Source: Candidatus Hydrogenedentota bacterium
GTDB lineage: Bacteria; Hydrogenedentota; Hydrogenedentia; Hydrogenedentales; JAJRTN01
NCBI GenBank assembly: GCA_024278275.1
Contig: JAJRTN010000123.1
Location: forward strand, 508-64,507
Direction: 5' to 3'
Length of the DNA stretch: 64,000 nucleotides
Shown here: piece after piece, positions 8,077 through 13,234 of the stretch
Layout of the letters: each line of letters starts with the position of its first letter
How positions within the stretch are numbered: position 1 is the first letter of the stretch
The notes under the pieces: model-generated
The model's database searches: none
What the model saw: the letters and a program-made list of their open reading frames with translations, nothing else
What the model was told of the DNA's origin: nothing
Position numbers and translations under genes: made by a program

Positions 8077-9024
8077 TCAATCGTCCTTCGTCCAGATCAC
8101 GCGCTCGATAAGCGGGAGATAGTCCGACCATTTCTGACCACGCTCGCGGGTCTCCTCGACAATCCGCGAGATGGCGGCCGCCTGGGCGTCCAGGTTGTCG
8201 ATATGGTGCAGCACGATGGCCTCCAGGGTCTTGGGCACCACGGGTGAACCGAACTGCAATTCCCCATGGTGCGAGAGGATGAGGTGGAGGAGTTGCACGC
8301 GGATCTTTTCGGGAAAGCCCTCGATAGTGTTCATTTTTTCGATGGCCATGTCGGCCCCGATCTGGAGATGGCCGATAAGCTTGCCTTCCGTGGTATAGTC
8401 CACGTGAAGGTCATGGGTCATTTCGCTGAGCTTACCCAGGTCATGGAGCAGGATGCCCGCCAGGAGAACGTCCCGGTCGAGGGCCGGGTAAAGCTCGCAC
8501 ATGGTCTGCGCGATGCGGGCCATTTCATAGCAATGGCGCACCAGGCCGCCCCGATGTTCATGGTGCCACTTCTTCGCCGCGGCCGCATGGGTGAATCGGC
8601 TGACAAAATCAGCGTCCGCCATGAACTTATCCACCAACTGCCTGATATGGGGTTCCTCGATGGTGTCCAGGATCTCGCGGAAGCCGTCCAGGTGTTCCCG
8701 CGTGTCCTCCGGCGTGAAAACGAGGTCCTCCGTGTCGTACTCGCCCTCGCGCAGGGGCACCACCTGGTCCACCACCACCTGGTTGCGCCCCTGGTAGACC
8801 GACACCCGGCCGCGCACGCTCACCACGTCGCCCACCTCGAAGCGCTTCGAGGTCTGCACGGCGTTGTTCCACATGATGCCGCCCACCTCGCCGGTGCGGT
8901 CCTTGAACACCATGCCCAGGAACTTGCCCCCGTCCTGCTTGGTGCGCAGGTCGTTACGCGTGGCCACGAAGACATCATTCACAATGTCCCCTTCCTGAAG
9001 GGTGTTCACATACTGGTTTTTCAT
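8077..9024 (-). CDS. YhaM-like 3'-5' exoribonuclease (OB-fold plus HD domain)
   Basis: An N-terminal OB-fold (DVFVATRNDLRTKQDGGKFLGMVFKDRTGEV...VSVRGRVSVYQGRNQ) is followed by an HD domain (HHEHRGGLVRHC...LLHDLGK). Confidence 0.8.
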   Translation of the reverse strand: MKNQYVNTLQEGDIVNDVFVATRNDLRTKQDGGKFLGMVFKDRTGEVGGIMWNNAVQTSKRFEVGDVVSVRGRVSVYQGRNQVVVDQVVPLREGEYDTEDLVFTPEDTREHLDGFREILDTIEEPHIRQLVDKFMADADFVSRFTHAAAAKKWHHEHRGGLVRHCYEMARIAQTMCELYPALDRDVLLAGILLHDLGKLSEMTHDLHVDYTTEGKLIGHLQIGADMAIEKMNTIEGFPEKIRVQLLHLILSHHGELQFGSPVVPKTLEAIVLHHIDNLDAQAAAISRIVEETRERGQKWSDYLPLIERVIWTKDD

Positions 9025-9129
9025 GGAATACTCCGATGTGTTAAGCGGGCGGACCCGCGCGGATGACCTTTGAAATCGTCTTCGTCACAGCCTATCCCGA
9101 AGGCGAGGGGAGGCGCAAGTCCCGGGGCC

Positions 9130-9512
9130 GGGTCTGTTTGTCCGTAAGGGTTTGTGGCAAGCGTTGACAGGGGTCTGTATGGGCCGGGTATTGAGCCGCG
9201 AAAGACGCGAATCCCTGGAGTGCCGACGGCTTGGGACGGTTCGGAAGGCAACATTGGACCCCTCGGTATTGCAAGAGGCGTTCAGGCTCCACGTGATCAC
9301 AGACCCCATGGGCGTTCGGAAGTTTCTTGCACGGAAGCCGGGAGATCCCGCAGTTGGCCTTGACCTGTTGTCAAGGTCCGCGTGGTCAGAATGAAATACA
9401 ACCACGATAAACGACAGTGGTCCGACAAACCCATAGTACCGCAGAAGCGCGCGAACAAAGAGCAGGGGAGACACTGCCCGGCGGAGCGCGTGGAGGGAAG
9501 AGGCACTATCTA
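9130..9512 (+). mobile_element. possible 3'-truncated group II intron relic (structured RNA plus the first ~40 codons of an intron-encoded-protein-like ORF)
   Basis: This roughly 250-nt non-coding stretch has long-range pairings, for example gggtctgt at about 9172 with acagaccc at about 9298, and GAAA-type loops (gagccgcGAAAgacgc). It is followed by an ORF fragment, ...SDKPIVPQKRANKEQGRHCPAERVEGRG. That fragment resembles, from memory, the Lys/Asn-rich N-termini of many bacterial group II intron reverse transcriptases (..IVxxKxxNKxGxxxAExxExRG..). No GUGYG 5' end, RT domain or domain V/VI is present, and the segment stops where a repeat element begins at 9516. Confidence 0.3.
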
Positions 9513-9515
9513 TAC

Positions 9516-9695
9516 CCCAATGTTGCATAAAGGTACCGGCCAGCCGTTGGTATCCCCAAGAACCGCCATCCCCGCGAACGCGGGAATCCACGGGAAAGGT
9601 CAAGGTGTTGCCCCTATCATGGATCCCCGTTTTCGCGGGAATGACGGTTGGTTGTGGCACGGACGGCGGTAGCGATTCTTGGTTCCGGTTCGGCC
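9516..9695. repeat. composite REP/MITE-like element (family A unit with conserved left and right flanks)
   Basis: 9516-9564 (ccaatgttgcataaaggtacc...ccccaagaacc) matches 32805-32851. The core unit at 9565-9647 has inverted arms. The right flank at 9647-9695 (ggttggttgtggcacggacggcggtagcgattc..) recurs at 48166-48210 and, inverted, at 54431-54480. Confidence 0.8.
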
Positions 9696-9711
9696 GGGGT
9701 AGGAGGCCATC

Positions 9712-11223
9712 ATGATCATTATTGGAAAGGACGTTTCGAGGGGAGGTGGGGACACGTTGGAGCGAGTCTCCGCGAAGCCGCGTGTGTGGGTAGCGGACCG
9801 TTTTTTATCGGAGGAGGAGACGGAGGCCCTGCTTGTCCAAGTGTCGGCGCGGGAAAGCGAATCCGCAAGCAAACTGGAGGCGAGGGAGGATCAAGCCGGT
9901 TTCAGTTTTGAATGGCTTATCGACGGGAACCTGCTATTGGAAACTATTCGTGAAAAGGTGACTAACATCCTGGGACTGGAAAACCAGTTGCCCGAGACCT
10001 TCCGCGTCCGCCATTACCGGCCCGGCAACGGGCATCCGCCTCATCTTGATTGCTATGAGATAGACGGCTACTCCCTGGTCTTTACAGCGCTCATGTATTT
10101 AGAGGACGCGACCGAGGGAGGCGAGACGCTTTTTCCGGAGACGGAGGAAGGGCCCTTCGCGGTCGCGTCGCGACTGGGCCGTCTGGTTGTGTGGTGCAAT
10201 TATCTTCCGGACGGGCGGCCCGACCCGCGATCCAGTCACGAGGGCATGCGCCTCGCGCGGGGTAGCAAGACAACCTTGGCGTGGTTCGTATACGCGCCGC
10301 TCTCGGCGGCGACGCACACCCCGGGAAGGGGTTGTTTCACGGAGAAAGCGCCCGGTCTCGGCGGGCGTCTTTTCTATATCGATGATGGGGTGCCCGAGGA
10401 GACAACGGAGGTGATGGAAAAGGCGTGCGGCGCGCGGGGAGTGCATTTTGCCTATGTTGATGTCCGCCAGTTTGATTTTTCCGCGGCCTCTCCCCTCCTG
10501 CCGGGCGATATGATCTACCGCGCGGCGGTCAGCGCCGATGCCATCAAAGCGGAGCAGCATCTCTTTGTGGACGGTGTCGCTACGCTCTACCGGAAACCGG
10601 AAGGCGTCTTCTTCGACACCGGTGCGGCGTGGGCGCTGTTTGAACGCGCCGGGGTGCCTACCCCGCGCGCCGTGTATTGTCATACCTCGGACCGCGCAAG
10701 ACTACGAGGCTACGCGGAATACTTGGGGGGATTCCCCCTGATTGCCAAGTTTGCGGGGGGCTCCGGGGGGGTAAATGTCGTGCTCATCGAATCGCTGCAA
10801 GGGTTGTTTTCGCTCATGGACCATGCCCACTATAACGGTCGCACGCCCTACTTGACGGCTTATGTCCCCGATGCGGAGCATTGGCGTATGGTCGTTGTGG
10901 GCGACTCGGTCGTCGCGGCCTATCGGAACCAGACGCAGACAGACGATTTTAGAACCTACGACGCGGAACGCGCCGAGGACTATCTTTTCCCTAAGGATCC
11001 CGCAATGGCCGCGTCCGCCGTGGCCGCGGTGCAGGTGCTGCAAGTCGAACTGGGCGGGGTGGATATTCTTCTGCACCCGAGTGGCCGACATTATGTGCTT
11101 GAGGCAAACTTTCCCTGTTACTTCGCCACGGCCCAACTCACGGGAGGTTTCGATATCGCCGGCGCGATAGTCAAGTTGCTGCGGAAAAAGGCGACCCGCC
11201 TTGCGGGGGCGGGCACGCCGTAA
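9712..11223 (+). CDS. fusion protein: prolyl 4-hydroxylase-type 2OG/Fe(II) oxygenase (N-terminal) and RimK-type ATP-grasp ligase (C-terminal)
   Basis: AGGAGG at 9701-9706 lies 5 nt before the ATG. The N-terminal roughly 200 aa carry HPPHLDCY (HxD), GGETLFPE, and SSHEG..GSKTTLAWFV. The C-terminal roughly 290 aa carry FPLIAKFAGGSGGVNVVLIE, HWRMVVVGDSVVAAYRN, and GGVDILLHPSGRHYVLEANFPCYF. Confidence 0.8.
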   Translation: MIIIGKDVSRGGGDTLERVSAKPRVWVADRFLSEEETEALLVQVSARESESASKLEAREDQAGFSFEWLIDGNLLLETIREKVTNILGLENQLPETFRVRHYRPGNGHPPHLDCYEIDGYSLVFTALMYLEDATEGGETLFPETEEGPFAVASRLGRLVVWCNYLPDGRPDPRSSHEGMRLARGSKTTLAWFVYAPLSAATHTPGRGCFTEKAPGLGGRLFYIDDGVPEETTEVMEKACGARGVHFAYVDVRQFDFSAASPLLPGDMIYRAAVSADAIKAEQHLFVDGVATLYRKPEGVFFDTGAAWALFERAGVPTPRAVYCHTSDRARLRGYAEYLGGFPLIAKFAGGSGGVNVVLIESLQGLFSLMDHAHYNGRTPYLTAYVPDAEHWRMVVVGDSVVAAYRNQTQTDDFRTYDAERAEDYLFPKDPAMAASAVAAVQVLQVELGGVDILLHPSGRHYVLEANFPCYFATAQLTGGFDIAGAIVKLLRKKATRLAGAGTP

Positions 11224-11268
11224 GAATTTGGGCCACGGAAGACCTGCTTTCAAGGCGGCTTCGGCGGC

Positions 11269-12102
11269 CTACTTGCGAGTCTGCTCAGAGGCGGAACCAC
11301 CGCGGCGACCCGCGCGCGCAGTCTCGCTCACGTTCGTCTTCTTGGCCCTCTCCTCACTGCCTCGCGCCTGGACGGCCTTTTCCTTCGCTTCCCCGGCGCG
11401 TTTCTTGGCTACCGTGAACAGCTTATTCTCCTGCTCCGAAAGCCGCCGTGCTTCTTGAAGCGCCTTTTCAGCCCCCTTTACCTGCTCCTCCGCATCCTTG
11501 GTCTTGTACCTCTTGTGCTCTTTCTCCGCGGCGCGCACATCGCGCCCGGAACTACGCACGGCACGTTTGGCTTCTTGCCAATCCTGGCGTGTTAGCTTCA
11601 CTTTCTCTTCGGCATTGCGCCACGTAAGCTTGGCCTTATCCTCCGAGGCACGCAAATCGCGCCTCACCTGCTTCACTCCCTCCTCCGCGTCGCGAACGTT
11701 CTTGCTGTGCTCCTCGCCCGTGCGTGCCAAATCCTTCGCCTGCGCAAAGGCTGATACCGTAGGCGCCATCACCGCGTACGCGGCGGCGGCCCCGGCAAGC
11801 CGCATCATGTCGCGACGAGTGGCATGGTTGCTGCCCGCGGGAGGCGTAACGCGGCTTTCAAGCATGCCCGCATCGGCAAGACGGTCGAGCGACAGAAACA
11901 CCGTTTCACGCGTTGCGGAAGCATCTACGTCGCGACGAACGACGTCAACAATTGCGTCGATGTCATTCGTGCCGTCGGCAGCCAGCAACACAGCGGCGTC
12001 GGTTCCCTCCAGGCCAATTGTTTGGTCAGAACGCAGGTTTACGCCCAGTCCTTTACCATGGCGCCGCAAGGTGATTTTCGCATAGCGAATTGGATTCTTC
12101 AT
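11269..12102 (-). CDS. hypothetical protein: PqqD-like N-terminal domain, internal twin-arginine/hydrophobic segment, Lys/Glu-rich repeat tail
   Basis: AGGAGA lies 9 nt before the ATG at 12102. Residues 20-85 (..LEGTDAAVLLAADGTNDIDAIVDVVRRDV..RETVFLSLDRLADAGMLE) resemble the PqqD/RRE fold pattern. TRRDMMRLAGAAAAYAVMAPTVSAFAQ follows at about residue 95. The last roughly 160 aa are charged repeats (..DAEEGVKQV..NAEEKVKLT..DAEEQVKGAEK..). Confidence 0.6.
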   Translation of the reverse strand: MKNPIRYAKITLRRHGKGLGVNLRSDQTIGLEGTDAAVLLAADGTNDIDAIVDVVRRDVDASATRETVFLSLDRLADAGMLESRVTPPAGSNHATRRDMMRLAGAAAAYAVMAPTVSAFAQAKDLARTGEEHSKNVRDAEEGVKQVRRDLRASEDKAKLTWRNAEEKVKLTRQDWQEAKRAVRSSGRDVRAAEKEHKRYKTKDAEEQVKGAEKALQEARRLSEQENKLFTVAKKRAGEAKEKAVQARGSEERAKKTNVSETARAGRRGGSASEQTRK

Positions 12103-12265
12103 TGTGGCACTTCTCCTGTTGGGTTTATCACCAGATTGAATCGCTTATAACAACGACTGTTCCGTCGCACCGAGTCACCTTGCATAAATCAACCTAACTT
12201 AACGTCACAACACCGGCCCGCAGAGACCTATTCCCACGCCATTAACAGCATTAACAGGAGCAGAC

Positions 12266-12312
12266 GACATGACTTCGCCCTTTTTCATGGGTTCCTGCGA
12301 ACGCGGGAATGC
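12266..12312. repeat. partial family A repeat (right arm only)
   Basis: gacatgacttcgccctttttcatgggttcctgcgaacgcgggaatgc aligns with 32888-32934. Confidence 0.7.
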
Positions 12313-12415
12313 TCCCCGCCAAGGTTCAAAATGACAAAAAGTGGGATGCGGCGCCACGCCGGGAAAAGCCCCAACCCGCTTCCGGAGACACGGGCGGGGA
12401 CGCATGAATTCCGGT

Positions 12416-13234
12416 TCATGCCTTCAGGCCGCCCTCGGACAGGCCCCTGATGAAGTACTTCATGCCCGCGAGAAGCAGCAGCGTCAGCGGCAGGGAGCCG
12501 ATGGCGTAGGCAGCGAAGGTCAGGCCGTATTCGGAGCGGTACACCGTGGAGAGATCGAAAATGGCCACGGCGAAGGTTTTCAGATGCTGATTCTGAAGGA
12601 CCATGAGGGGCCAGACGAAATCGTTATAGATGCCGTGGAAGTTGATGATGGCGACGACCGTCAGGATCGGCAGCGAGAGGGGTAAGACAATCCGGCGGTA
12701 GATGGTGAATTCGCCGGCCCCGTCGAGCCGGGCACTCTCGAAGTAGTCCTCGGGAATGGTGGAAAAGAATCCGCGGCAGAGAAGGATTCCCACGATTTGG
12801 CCTTGCGCGATGTAGGGCAGGATCAGCGCCCAGTAGGAATCGAGGAGCCCGAGCTGCTTGACCTCGACAAAGAGGGGCACCAGCAACAACACTTGTGGAA
12901 CCATGACCAGCGCCAGCAGCATGATGAACAGGAGCTCACGCCCCGGGAAGCGGTGTCGCGCGAAAACGAACCCGGAAAGGGAACTGACAAAGACAATCCC
13001 CCCGCAACTGACCACGGCGACGAAAAGGCTGCTCAGGATACTCCAATGGATCGTGGCAAAGGCTTCGGTGTAATTACTCCACTGGATCCGCGTGGGTGGT
13101 CGCCAGAAGGACGTAATGATCTCTAGGTTGCTCTTGAGGGAAAGAAACAACATGAGCGCCACCGGCAGAAGACTCAATGCCAGCAGAAGGAAGAGCACCG
13201 CCCTGGCCCACCAGACATGGTTCTGTTTACGCAT
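12416..13234 (-). CDS. carbohydrate ABC transporter permease (MalG-like)
   Basis: Six-TM profile with an EAA-like loop (ESARLDGAGEFTIYRRIVLPLS). The ATG at 13234 overlaps the upstream stop (ATGA). The longest ORF, starting at 13366, is unlikely. Confidence 0.85.
   Translation of the reverse strand: MRKQNHVWWARAVLFLLLALSLLPVALMLFLSLKSNLEIITSFWRPPTRIQWSNYTEAFATIHWSILSSLFVAVVSCGGIVFVSSLSGFVFARHRFPGRELLFIMLLALVMVPQVLLLVPLFVEVKQLGLLDSYWALILPYIAQGQIVGILLCRGFFSTIPEDYFESARLDGAGEFTIYRRIVLPLSLPILTVVAIINFHGIYNDFVWPLMVLQNQHLKTFAVAIFDLSTVYRSEYGLTFAAYAIGSLPLTLLLLAGMKYFIRGLSEGGLKA

Follow-up and report, generated by a model that had tools for sequence, protein, structure and literature searches.

Why should a bacterial protein carry a twin-arginine translocation (Tat)-type signal in the middle of its chain, between a PqqD-like domain and a tail of charged repeats, and what might this arrangement have to do with the ligase gene beside it? 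The question is raised by a gene at positions 11269-12102, minus strand, of a 64,000-nucleotide (nt) stretch of contig JAJRTN010000123.1 from a Candidatus Hydrogenedentota bacterium (assembly GCA_024278275.1), a stretch referred to below as the window. Its neighbour encodes a fusion of a prolyl 4-hydroxylase (P4H)-type 2-oxoglutarate (2OG)/Fe(II) oxygenase with a RimK-like ATP-grasp ligase. An initial annotation, made from the letters of the window, had described the three parts of the protein and had raised, as a speculation, a substrate/enzyme relationship between the two genes; this interpretation is supported by the analysis reported here. The reading to which we were led, and to which we give an even chance, is that the protein is a dedicated, self-contained precursor of the convergent oxygenase/ATP-grasp enzyme. 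It would have a built-in leader in the form of a RiPP recognition element (RRE; RiPP, peptide made by the ribosome and modified post-translationally), Glu-Lys staples with additional hydroxylation, Tat export of the folded product, and removal of the leader by signal peptidase.

We confirmed that the open reading frame (ORF) is genuine and that all three described parts are present. The enzyme gene (9712-11223, plus strand) converges on the presumed substrate gene with 45 nt between the stops, and the tail-to-tail arrangement first described thus agrees with the ORF list. The features are as follows (aa, amino acids; AF2, AlphaFold2; HMM, hidden Markov model).

11269..12102, minus strand: protein of 277 aa with an RRE-like domain, a Tat-type signal and a tail of ExxxK repeats (ORF list, ATG start)
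12113..12117, minus strand: AGGAG, Shine-Dalgarno-like, 10 nt 5' of the ATG at 12102 (read from the sequence)
11827..12102, minus strand: predicted PqqD/RRE-like winged-helix domain, residues 1-92 (AF2 model, TbiB1 match, PF05402 in relatives, codon pattern)
11740..11826, minus strand: Tat-type signal, residues 93-121, with T-R-R-D-M-M-R, an Ala-rich hydrophobic (h-) region and A-Q-A before K122 (family logo, weak HMM matches)
11269..11739, minus strand: predicted two-helix ExxxK tail, residues 122-277 plus stop (AF2 model, motif count)
9712..11223, plus strand: partner enzyme of 503 aa, P4H-type 2OG/Fe(II) oxygenase fused to a RimK-like ATP-grasp ligase (Pfam, NCBIfam, family profile against the PDB)

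Glu-x-x-x-Lys repeats and linkage to an ATP-grasp ligase

A word-indexed search returned four homologues of about 52-62% identity, which all keep the tail motifs and the RR segment as well as the N-domain. Exhaustive phmmer analysis of 1.84 billion representatives yielded 174 cluster proteins at E ≤ 1e-3, six of them at E ≤ 1e-10. The first ~120 residues are common to the best 150 of these 174 matches, and the sequences diverge beyond. The signature LDxLADAGLL..R(V/A)xPPAG...SRR is found in about 100 of 154 proteins examined. Judged from these sequences, the family appears to share an architecture of RRE, S-R-R-x-L-L-R signal and variable tail in at least 174 clusters, and neither Pfam nor NCBIfam yielded a family dedicated to this arrangement.

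The tail of the query (residues 122-277) contains 23 Ala, 22 Lys, 22 Glu, 21 Arg and seven Asp, and is modelled by AF2 as two long helices (122-199 and 202-267). It had been described as some 160 residues of charged, heptad-like repeats; tail and repeats are indeed present, while the unit proved to be Glu-x-x-x-Lys. Ten units of the form R-x-[A/S]-E-x-x-x-K were counted (Glu at 130, 140, 154, 165, 193, 205, 223, 238, 250/251 and 273), and the repeats are not heptads because successive motifs are spaced 10 to 28 residues apart. No tandem repeat was found in the tail at the DNA level. Foldseek and VIA matched the tail to the HlyD, MacA and colicin coiled coils and to ROP, a likeness that we rejected as a clue to function, these being generic helical hairpins.

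In the query tail, Glu is followed by Lys at i+4 in 11 pairs against 3.0 expected, a number reached in none of 10,000 shuffles, and five close homologues all preserve ten of the 11. No Glu is followed by Arg at i+4, despite 21 Arg versus 22 Lys. The same bias is seen in the tails of 153 family members: Glu with Lys at i+4 was observed 1091 times versus 256 expected (z 67), whereas both E to R (102 versus 164, z -5.5) and D to K (44 versus 92, z -5.6) are depleted. In the reverse order, K to E is enriched (365 versus 257, z 7.6) and K to D is not (79 versus 93). The local logo of the motif reads [A/S]-[Q/A/K]-E-[Q/E]-x-x-K. At least two motifs are present in 110 of the 153 tails, one in five and none in 38, many of the latter being Cys-rich with an APTPA-type signal end. 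The initial annotation had pointed to Lys, Glu, Asp, Thr and Ser in the tail as residues targeted by ATP-grasp ligases; Glu and Lys are indeed patterned, but no role in the pattern is apparent for Asp, Thr or Ser.

Linkage to the ligase was examined in eight loci with DNA (the window, L003, L044, L045, L046, L047, L048 and L049) by tblastn and ORF reading. An ATP-grasp homologue adjoins the family gene in seven of the eight, namely all except L044, which lends genomic support to the substrate/enzyme relationship suggested at the outset. The orientation varies (convergent, divergent or same strand), and the remaining neighbours are not common to the loci; in L003, for example, the flanking genes have no homologue in the window. 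An oxygenase, fused or separate, occurs in only three of the eight loci and is for this reason regarded as accessory. The loci that depart from the fused, convergent arrangement are listed below.

L045: oxygenase (205 aa) and ATP-grasp (294 aa) separate with a 4-nt overlap, divergent from the substrate gene; PF00144 beta-lactamase gene beside them
L046: ATP-grasp gene alone, in convergent orientation
L047: ATP-grasp gene alone, on the strand of the substrate gene, with one intervening ORF
L048: part of an ATP-grasp gene, where the contig ends
L049: part of an ATP-grasp gene, where the contig ends
L044: contig of 3.1 kb, syntenic with L003; the substrate and DUF6901 genes have no enzyme gene between them

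The substrates of the seven loci outside the window carry 3 to 38 ExxxK motifs, which start anywhere from just after the signal to ~60 residues downstream, and two of them also have a C-terminal globular part. The beta-lactamase-family gene of L045 (4145-5377, plus strand, E 9.2e-67), a neighbour of the separate genes for ligase and oxygenase, has no homologue in the window or the six other loci. Directly upstream of family members we observed a caspase-like Peptidase_C14/CHAT protein (L049:2887-5523, plus strand) and a dockerin-bearing protein of 1006 aa (L046:3833-6853, plus strand).

Co-occurrence was then assessed within the phylum (135 genomes). The enzyme is matched at E ≤ 1e-10 in 38 of them, at full length only in G000 and G005; in the other 36 the match covers the ATP-grasp part only, at 26-33% identity. 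A family-profile search found true family members in the same two genomes only, so that fused enzyme and close substrate homologue coincide in two of the 135 genomes. G005, a Candidatus Hydrogenedens metagenome-assembled genome that holds locus L003, is the one further species-level genome in the phylum with a homologue; there the genes are again convergent, the fused enzyme is 67% identical and the stops overlap. Eight extra loci from a phylum profile search (L006-L013) were rejected as members, as they are without the family motif and gave no tblastn match to the N-domain; by sequence, they appear to be other PqqD-like or Tat-signal proteins.

Eight of 22 clusters of the ExxxK class share both source and exact contig size with one of 92 listed enzyme homologues (sizes 181713, 9587, 3019, 25102, 73864, 72541, 4052 and 2753, chance being conceivable for the shortest). 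None of the 12 motif-free clusters does so (11 with a recorded size), non-matches meaning little in this comparison since many contigs are short.

In the enzyme itself, Pfam recognises RimK (5.1e-13) and, with a score of 25.5 bits that narrowly misses the cut-off of 27, 2OG-FeII_Oxy_3, the oxygenase covering residues 98-193 and the ATP-grasp part residues 308-489; the top NCBIfam match is the RimK family TIGR00768 (8.9e-22). A profile of 31 homologues searched against the PDB retrieved RimK (5e-31), prolyl 4-hydroxylases (7e-19) and the graspetide ligase PsnB (1.5e-11), and in these homologues the iron triad H111, D113 and H176 and the ATP-grasp residues K346, D451, E464 and N466 are invariant or nearly so. 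The relatives comprise fused forms of ~500 aa and ligase-only forms of ~285 aa, half of those listed carrying the fused oxygenase.

The N-terminal domain and the mid-chain twin-arginine segment

The initial annotation had likened the N-terminal ~85 residues to PqqD, and this assignment is borne out once the family is considered as a whole. On the query itself, Pfam PqqD (PF05402) gives no match even at E ≤ 1, the best Pfam match of the N-domain being the PKMT_2nd winged helix (E 0.023). PF05402 is found at E ≤ 0.01 in 38 of 77 relatives (best 2.7e-10), and the NCBIfam PqqD, ScmD and ApyI models each match 14 of the 77, with TIGR03859 matched too. Against solved structures, the family profile retrieves PqqD (3g2b at 3.2e-5; 5sxy at 6.5e-4) and TbiB1 (5v1u at 1.9e-3). 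The AF2 model built from the family alignment has a mean predicted local distance difference test (pLDDT) score of 85.8, exceeding 90 for residues 1-80, and shows strands at 11-15, 18-22 and 28-31 followed by helices at 34-41, 48-58 and 65-77. The domain ends in a conserved LDxLADAG(L/M)L..R..PPAG.

The structural comparison proposed for residues 1-90 points the same way. TbiB1 is the top Foldseek match of the model (E 1.5e-3, target-normalised template modelling score (TMt) 0.72-0.73), and VIA-align superimposes model residues 2-86 on it with Z 10.7 and a root-mean-square deviation of 2.3 over 85 of 88 residues. At lower ranks come the lasso B1 protein 6jx3 (TMt 0.74) and PqqD 5sxy (TMt 0.62), with unrelated helical proteins interspersed. 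Residues 1-90 are therefore predicted to fold as a PqqD/RRE domain, sharing three strands and three helices with PqqD and RRE structures (TbiB1 5v1u/5v1v, 3g2b, 5sxy). To our knowledge, known RREs reside on enzymes or are free-standing, and bind the leader of a precursor. Here, in contrast, the RRE-like domain belongs to the presumed precursor itself and lies ahead of an export signal. A predicted complex of the enzyme with substrate residues 1-150 scored 0.62, and one unrelated control scored 0.61. Pro87-Pro88 was considered as a P4H target that might explain its conservation; this is unlikely, the pair being kept in loci without an oxygenase.

The N-domain is also evidently translated, because codon changes concentrate at third positions. 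Over codons 33-92, comparison with the genes of L003 and L044, which are 42-46% identical, gave 21/15/41 and 17/14/38 differences at positions 1/2/3, respectively, with 25 synonymous changes in the former comparison and 24-25 across both.

Behind this domain, T95-R96-R97 and the stretch RRDMMRLAGAAAAYAVMAPTVSAFAQA are present as first described, and the mid-protein Tat-type motif is real: family members share it in the form [ST]-R-R-x-[LVMF]-L-[RK]. In the logo, the invariant RR stands in the context [S50%/T20%]-R-R-x-[L/V/M/F]-[L50%]-[R44%/K11%], and the longest run of uncharged residues that follows has a median length of 20. The query version combines T-R-R-D-M-M-R with a weakly hydrophobic, Pro-containing and Ala-rich stretch and A-Q-A. 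The motif, the moderately hydrophobic h-region and the A-x-A are those of a Tat signal, and the host has Tat machinery (TatC in genome G000, E 5.2e-59, above the cut-off). Profile matches are weak: the only NCBIfam match of the query is the Tat-target model TIGR02811 (E 0.047), TIGR01409 is found at E ≤ 0.01 in five of 77 relatives, and a family profile of positions 94-131, compared with the N-termini of solved Tat substrates, gave matches at E 0.06-5 to the NapA signal, the arsenite oxidase Rieske subunit, MelC1, copper oxidases, NosZ and nitrite reductase.

The segment thus resembles Tat signal peptides in its S/T-R-R-x-F-L-K-like motif, weakly hydrophobic h-region and A-x-A, but differs from them in being preceded, on its own chain, by a folded domain of 90 residues and in having no cofactor-containing cargo. 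Proofreading chaperones such as NapD and TorD serve Tat export, and a peptide-binding module beside a Tat signal recalls this chaperone-gated export.

A candidate precursor weighed against other readings

From the observed anatomy, motif statistics and gene linkage, we infer a cross-linking chemistry, a Tat route and a role for the RRE-like domain. A RiPP-like logic fits the system because a conserved leader-like N-terminal part is followed by a hypervariable tail, with a dedicated ligase and a strict pairing of acid and amine one helical turn apart. The RRE-like domain would stay in the cytoplasm as a built-in leader or recognition module, and the RimK-like ATP-grasp ligase would activate, in each R-x-[AS]-E-x-x-x-K, the side chain of Glu and join it to the Lys four residues on. 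One-turn lactam staples would thereby be laid along the two long helices, as suggested by the motif statistics and by analogy with corallotide (see below). The fused 2OG oxygenase may add a hydroxyl group and, more speculatively, may do so on the cross-linked Lys, as is reported for CorC of the corallotide pathway. Tat would then export the folded, cross-linked tail by way of the internal twin-arginine signal, a route perhaps chosen for a product that has been cross-linked and folded beforehand. Signal peptidase I would cut after A-Q-A121, doubling as leader protease. Since signal peptidase and Tat would perform both tasks, no dedicated protease or transporter would be needed, which fits a two-gene module.

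Several points weigh against this scheme. The Glu-Lys cross-linking chemistry in the tail is proposed by analogy, and enzyme binding by the RRE domain is a putative role. The E(i)-K(i+4) spacing coincides with the favoured salt-bridge pattern of single alpha-helices, the oxygenase accompanies only three of the eight loci, and L044 (935-1857; compare L003:6001-8416) keeps 12 ExxxK motifs with no enzyme gene in the 3.1 kb seen. Furthermore, the ligase scores as a member of the RimK family, TIGR04187 reaching only 24 bits versus a cut-off of 350. The Tat motif starts at residue 95, behind a conserved, translated domain and not at the N-terminus, and PF10518 gives only 13.6 bits on the query (E 0.066) versus a cut-off of 22.7.

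These points leave room for other readings, two of which concern the start of the protein and its signal. With an internal start, the product would be a plain Tat-exported protein lacking the RRE-like domain, and Met80 does lie ahead of the RR motif. This Met is, however, replaced by Leu in all four close homologues, none of which has a Met between the domain and RR; with a Shine-Dalgarno sequence ahead of the first ATG, coding-type divergence across the N-domain, and conservation of that domain in the 150 listed of 174 matching clusters, we consider an internal start extremely improbable. The role of the segment as a signal-anchor, suggested in the initial annotation, fared less well than the motif itself. 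An uncleaved N-in/C-out anchor would make the RRE-like domain a cytoplasmic adaptor or sensor and the tail a TolA-like periplasmic spacer. The signal is internal, with ~95 residues preceding it, one homologue is named 'colicin import membrane protein' by JGI, and the TolA model TIGR02794 matches two of 77 relatives. Yet the TolA likeness is one of composition only, and the Pro-containing, Ala-rich segment resembles Tat h-regions. A-x-A follows within 12-38 residues in 133 of 150 members, and by the Hessa scale the most favourable 19-residue window of the query stands at +4.4 kcal/mol, with no member under +1 and thus no window predicted to enter the membrane. A cleavable Tat-type h-region is favoured over a stable anchor because these window sums are high, so that anchoring seems unlikely.

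The other two readings accept export and concern what the ligase does to the tail. RimK adds free glutamate to ribosomal protein S6, at its C-terminus, and performs no cross-linking. As the closest solved relative of the ligase half (S6 L-glutamate ligase, 4iwx and 5zct), it stands far ahead of PsnB in the profile search, and TIGR00768 agrees; glutamate or another free amino acid might then be added onto the motif Glu, or the motif Lys acylated, the other residue serving only for recognition. We judge this improbable, though not negligible: Glu and Lys are both fixed one helical turn apart, and the exclusion of Arg and Asp at the motif positions is more in keeping with a carboxylate-amine pair than with a motif for recognition. 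S6-like tailing in particular is unlikely because the C-termini of the family are not conserved, and the partner here, unlike that of RimK, is a putatively exported repeat protein. Alternatively, the protein may be an unmodified, exported structural protein of single-helix or coiled-coil type, with ExxxK serving as salt bridges and the ligase acting elsewhere. E(i)-K(i+4) ion pairs stabilise helices and are the favoured pattern of single alpha-helices, the model contains two long helices, and L044 lacks an adjacent enzyme. ER/K helices, however, use Arg freely, whereas here Arg is not interchangeable with Lys, being depleted at i+4 in the family and absent from that position in the query; the ligase, moreover, is adjacent in seven of eight loci in three different gene orders. 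This last reading strikes us as a good deal less probable than the RimK-like one.

Returning to the stapled-precursor reading, its nearest characterised counterpart appears to be corallotide from Corallococcus exercitus (CorA/CorB/CorC/CorD, graspetide group 15). According to its description (Carter et al. 2026, PMC13097080), an ATP-grasp enzyme acts on a 22-kDa precursor, whose N-terminal domain binds the enzymes, and joins Lys(i) to Asp(i+4) by isopeptide bonds in five repeats; the PF13640 oxygenase CorC, in complex with the ligase CorB, then hydroxylates Lys. As described there, both systems have a large precursor with an N-terminal domain and repeats in which an acid and Lys stand four residues apart, and both pair an ATP-grasp with a PF13640 2OG oxygenase, as a CorB/CorC complex there and as a fusion here (adjacent genes in L045). 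The PF00144 beta-lactamase of L045 mirrors CorD, while the other seven of the eight loci are without one. The differences, as far as that description goes, are that the motif is E-x-x-x-K here versus K-x-x-x-D, the tail is predicted to be helical versus coil, the N-domain has a predicted RRE fold versus an alpha-helical one described for CorA, and the ligase is RimK-like versus TIGR04187. A Tat-type signal separates domain and repeats here, none being seen in CorA on inspection by eye, and several phyla appear to be involved versus only Corallococcus. The distinction from CorA, CorB and CorC was drawn from their description. On these grounds, the ExxxK repeats, the RRE fold, the RimK-like ligase and a beta-lactamase in only one of eight loci set the family outside the corallotide type.

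Graspetide precursors more generally lie beside an ATP-grasp ligase and pair an acid with Lys in a core motif, as the family does (seven of eight loci), but its ligase falls outside the graspetide synthetase models (MvdD 16.7 versus a cut-off of 475) and is best matched by the RimK family. Plesiocin and other multi-repeat graspetides have their side chains cross-linked by a single ATP-grasp enzyme, which acts on several repeats of a conserved core motif. This scheme resembles the one proposed here, the plesiocin enzyme PsnB (7drm) being the weak PDB match mentioned above; plesiocin-type products are, in contrast, short peptides with Thr/Ser ester links, a linear leader and no export signal. 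In the examined part of the RODEO table of Carter et al. (>20,000 predicted graspetides), the family motif LADAGLL has no occurrence, and each of the Hydrogenedentota entries shown (18 of 19) is a small precursor of group 2. As far as this part of the table can tell, the system escapes graspetide catalogues.

A full-text search, which covered literature outside the subscription journals, found no paper that describes the RRE/PqqD plus Tat signal architecture in connection with graspetides, RiPPs or RimK. If the stapled-precursor reading holds, enzyme-made Glu-Lys helix staples would be added to the bacterial ways of cross-linking ribosomal products, and a ligase of RimK type rather than microviridin type would join the enzymes that perform such cross-linking. 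It would be the first case found with the recognition element on the precursor itself, and would connect maturation of a RiPP-like kind with the export, through Tat, of a product folded beforehand. Such a route, without leader protease or transporter, would be a natural counterpart of synthetic lactam-stapled helices and could offer a minimal two-gene tool for protease-resistant stapled helical proteins. A broader version, which we put forward only tentatively and regard as rather doubtful, is that the RRE plus twin-arginine cassette serves generally as a leader for products that are first modified and then exported in the folded state: the RimK-type ligase would make Glu(i)-Lys(i+4) staples, a Cys-rich branch of the family perhaps undergoing other chemistry, with Tat exporting the product and signal peptidase removing the leader.

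Breadth of the family and neighbouring features

By the names of their sources, the enzymes derive from Hydrogenedentota, Myxococcota, Chloroflexota, Acidobacteriota and Caulobacterales, with Polyangium among the relatives, and those of the substrates include Rhodospirillales; the system therefore appears to be spread over several phyla. A metagenome scan with an alignment of the close homologues gave 304 pattern matches and no relatives, and one with a narrower alignment gave six loci. In the plasmid collection, two family members used as queries found no match, and the enzyme query found only an oxygenase match of 36% coverage in Thioalkalivibrio. Only PqqD-annotated clusters were retrieved from the ESM Atlas, at 0.85-0.86 and hence under the 0.9 mark, and these are taken as leads only.

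The Cys-rich branch of the same RRE plus RR-signal family has short tails with 6-14 Cys, no ExxxK repeats, and a signal ending in ...APTPA. Its members are P0051, P0057, P0063, P0082, P0089, P0112, P0119, P0122, P0124, P0136, P0138, P0142, P0146 and P0153; none of the 11 with a recorded contig size shares it with a listed ligase homologue. In another variation, a PEP-CTERM-type sorting signal stands at the C-terminus of six of 77 relatives according to Pfam, and several NCBIfam PEP-CTERM models match too (members with such ends include P0013, P0026, P0052 and P0062). Such ends require the tail of these members to lie outside the cytoplasm, and imply that exosortase takes over once they are exported.

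Two further features flank the gene pair in the window.

11194..11214, minus strand: terminator-like hairpin plus T-run 3' of the substrate gene, within the last enzyme codons
9087-9306, plus strand: group-II-D1D4-6, full-length Rfam match, 93.7 bits, E 3.2e-26

The position of the hairpin is suggestive only, the region containing four terminator-like sites versus 4.7 expected from shuffles and thus no excess. A search for sequencing runs covering 9600-12450 yielded none. No further Rfam matches were found in 8500-13000, and the listed ORFs of 61-191 aa around the group-II-D1D4-6 match include no long ORF for an intron protein. This match, which adjoins the enzyme gene on its upstream side, possibly represents an ORF-less or truncated group II intron.

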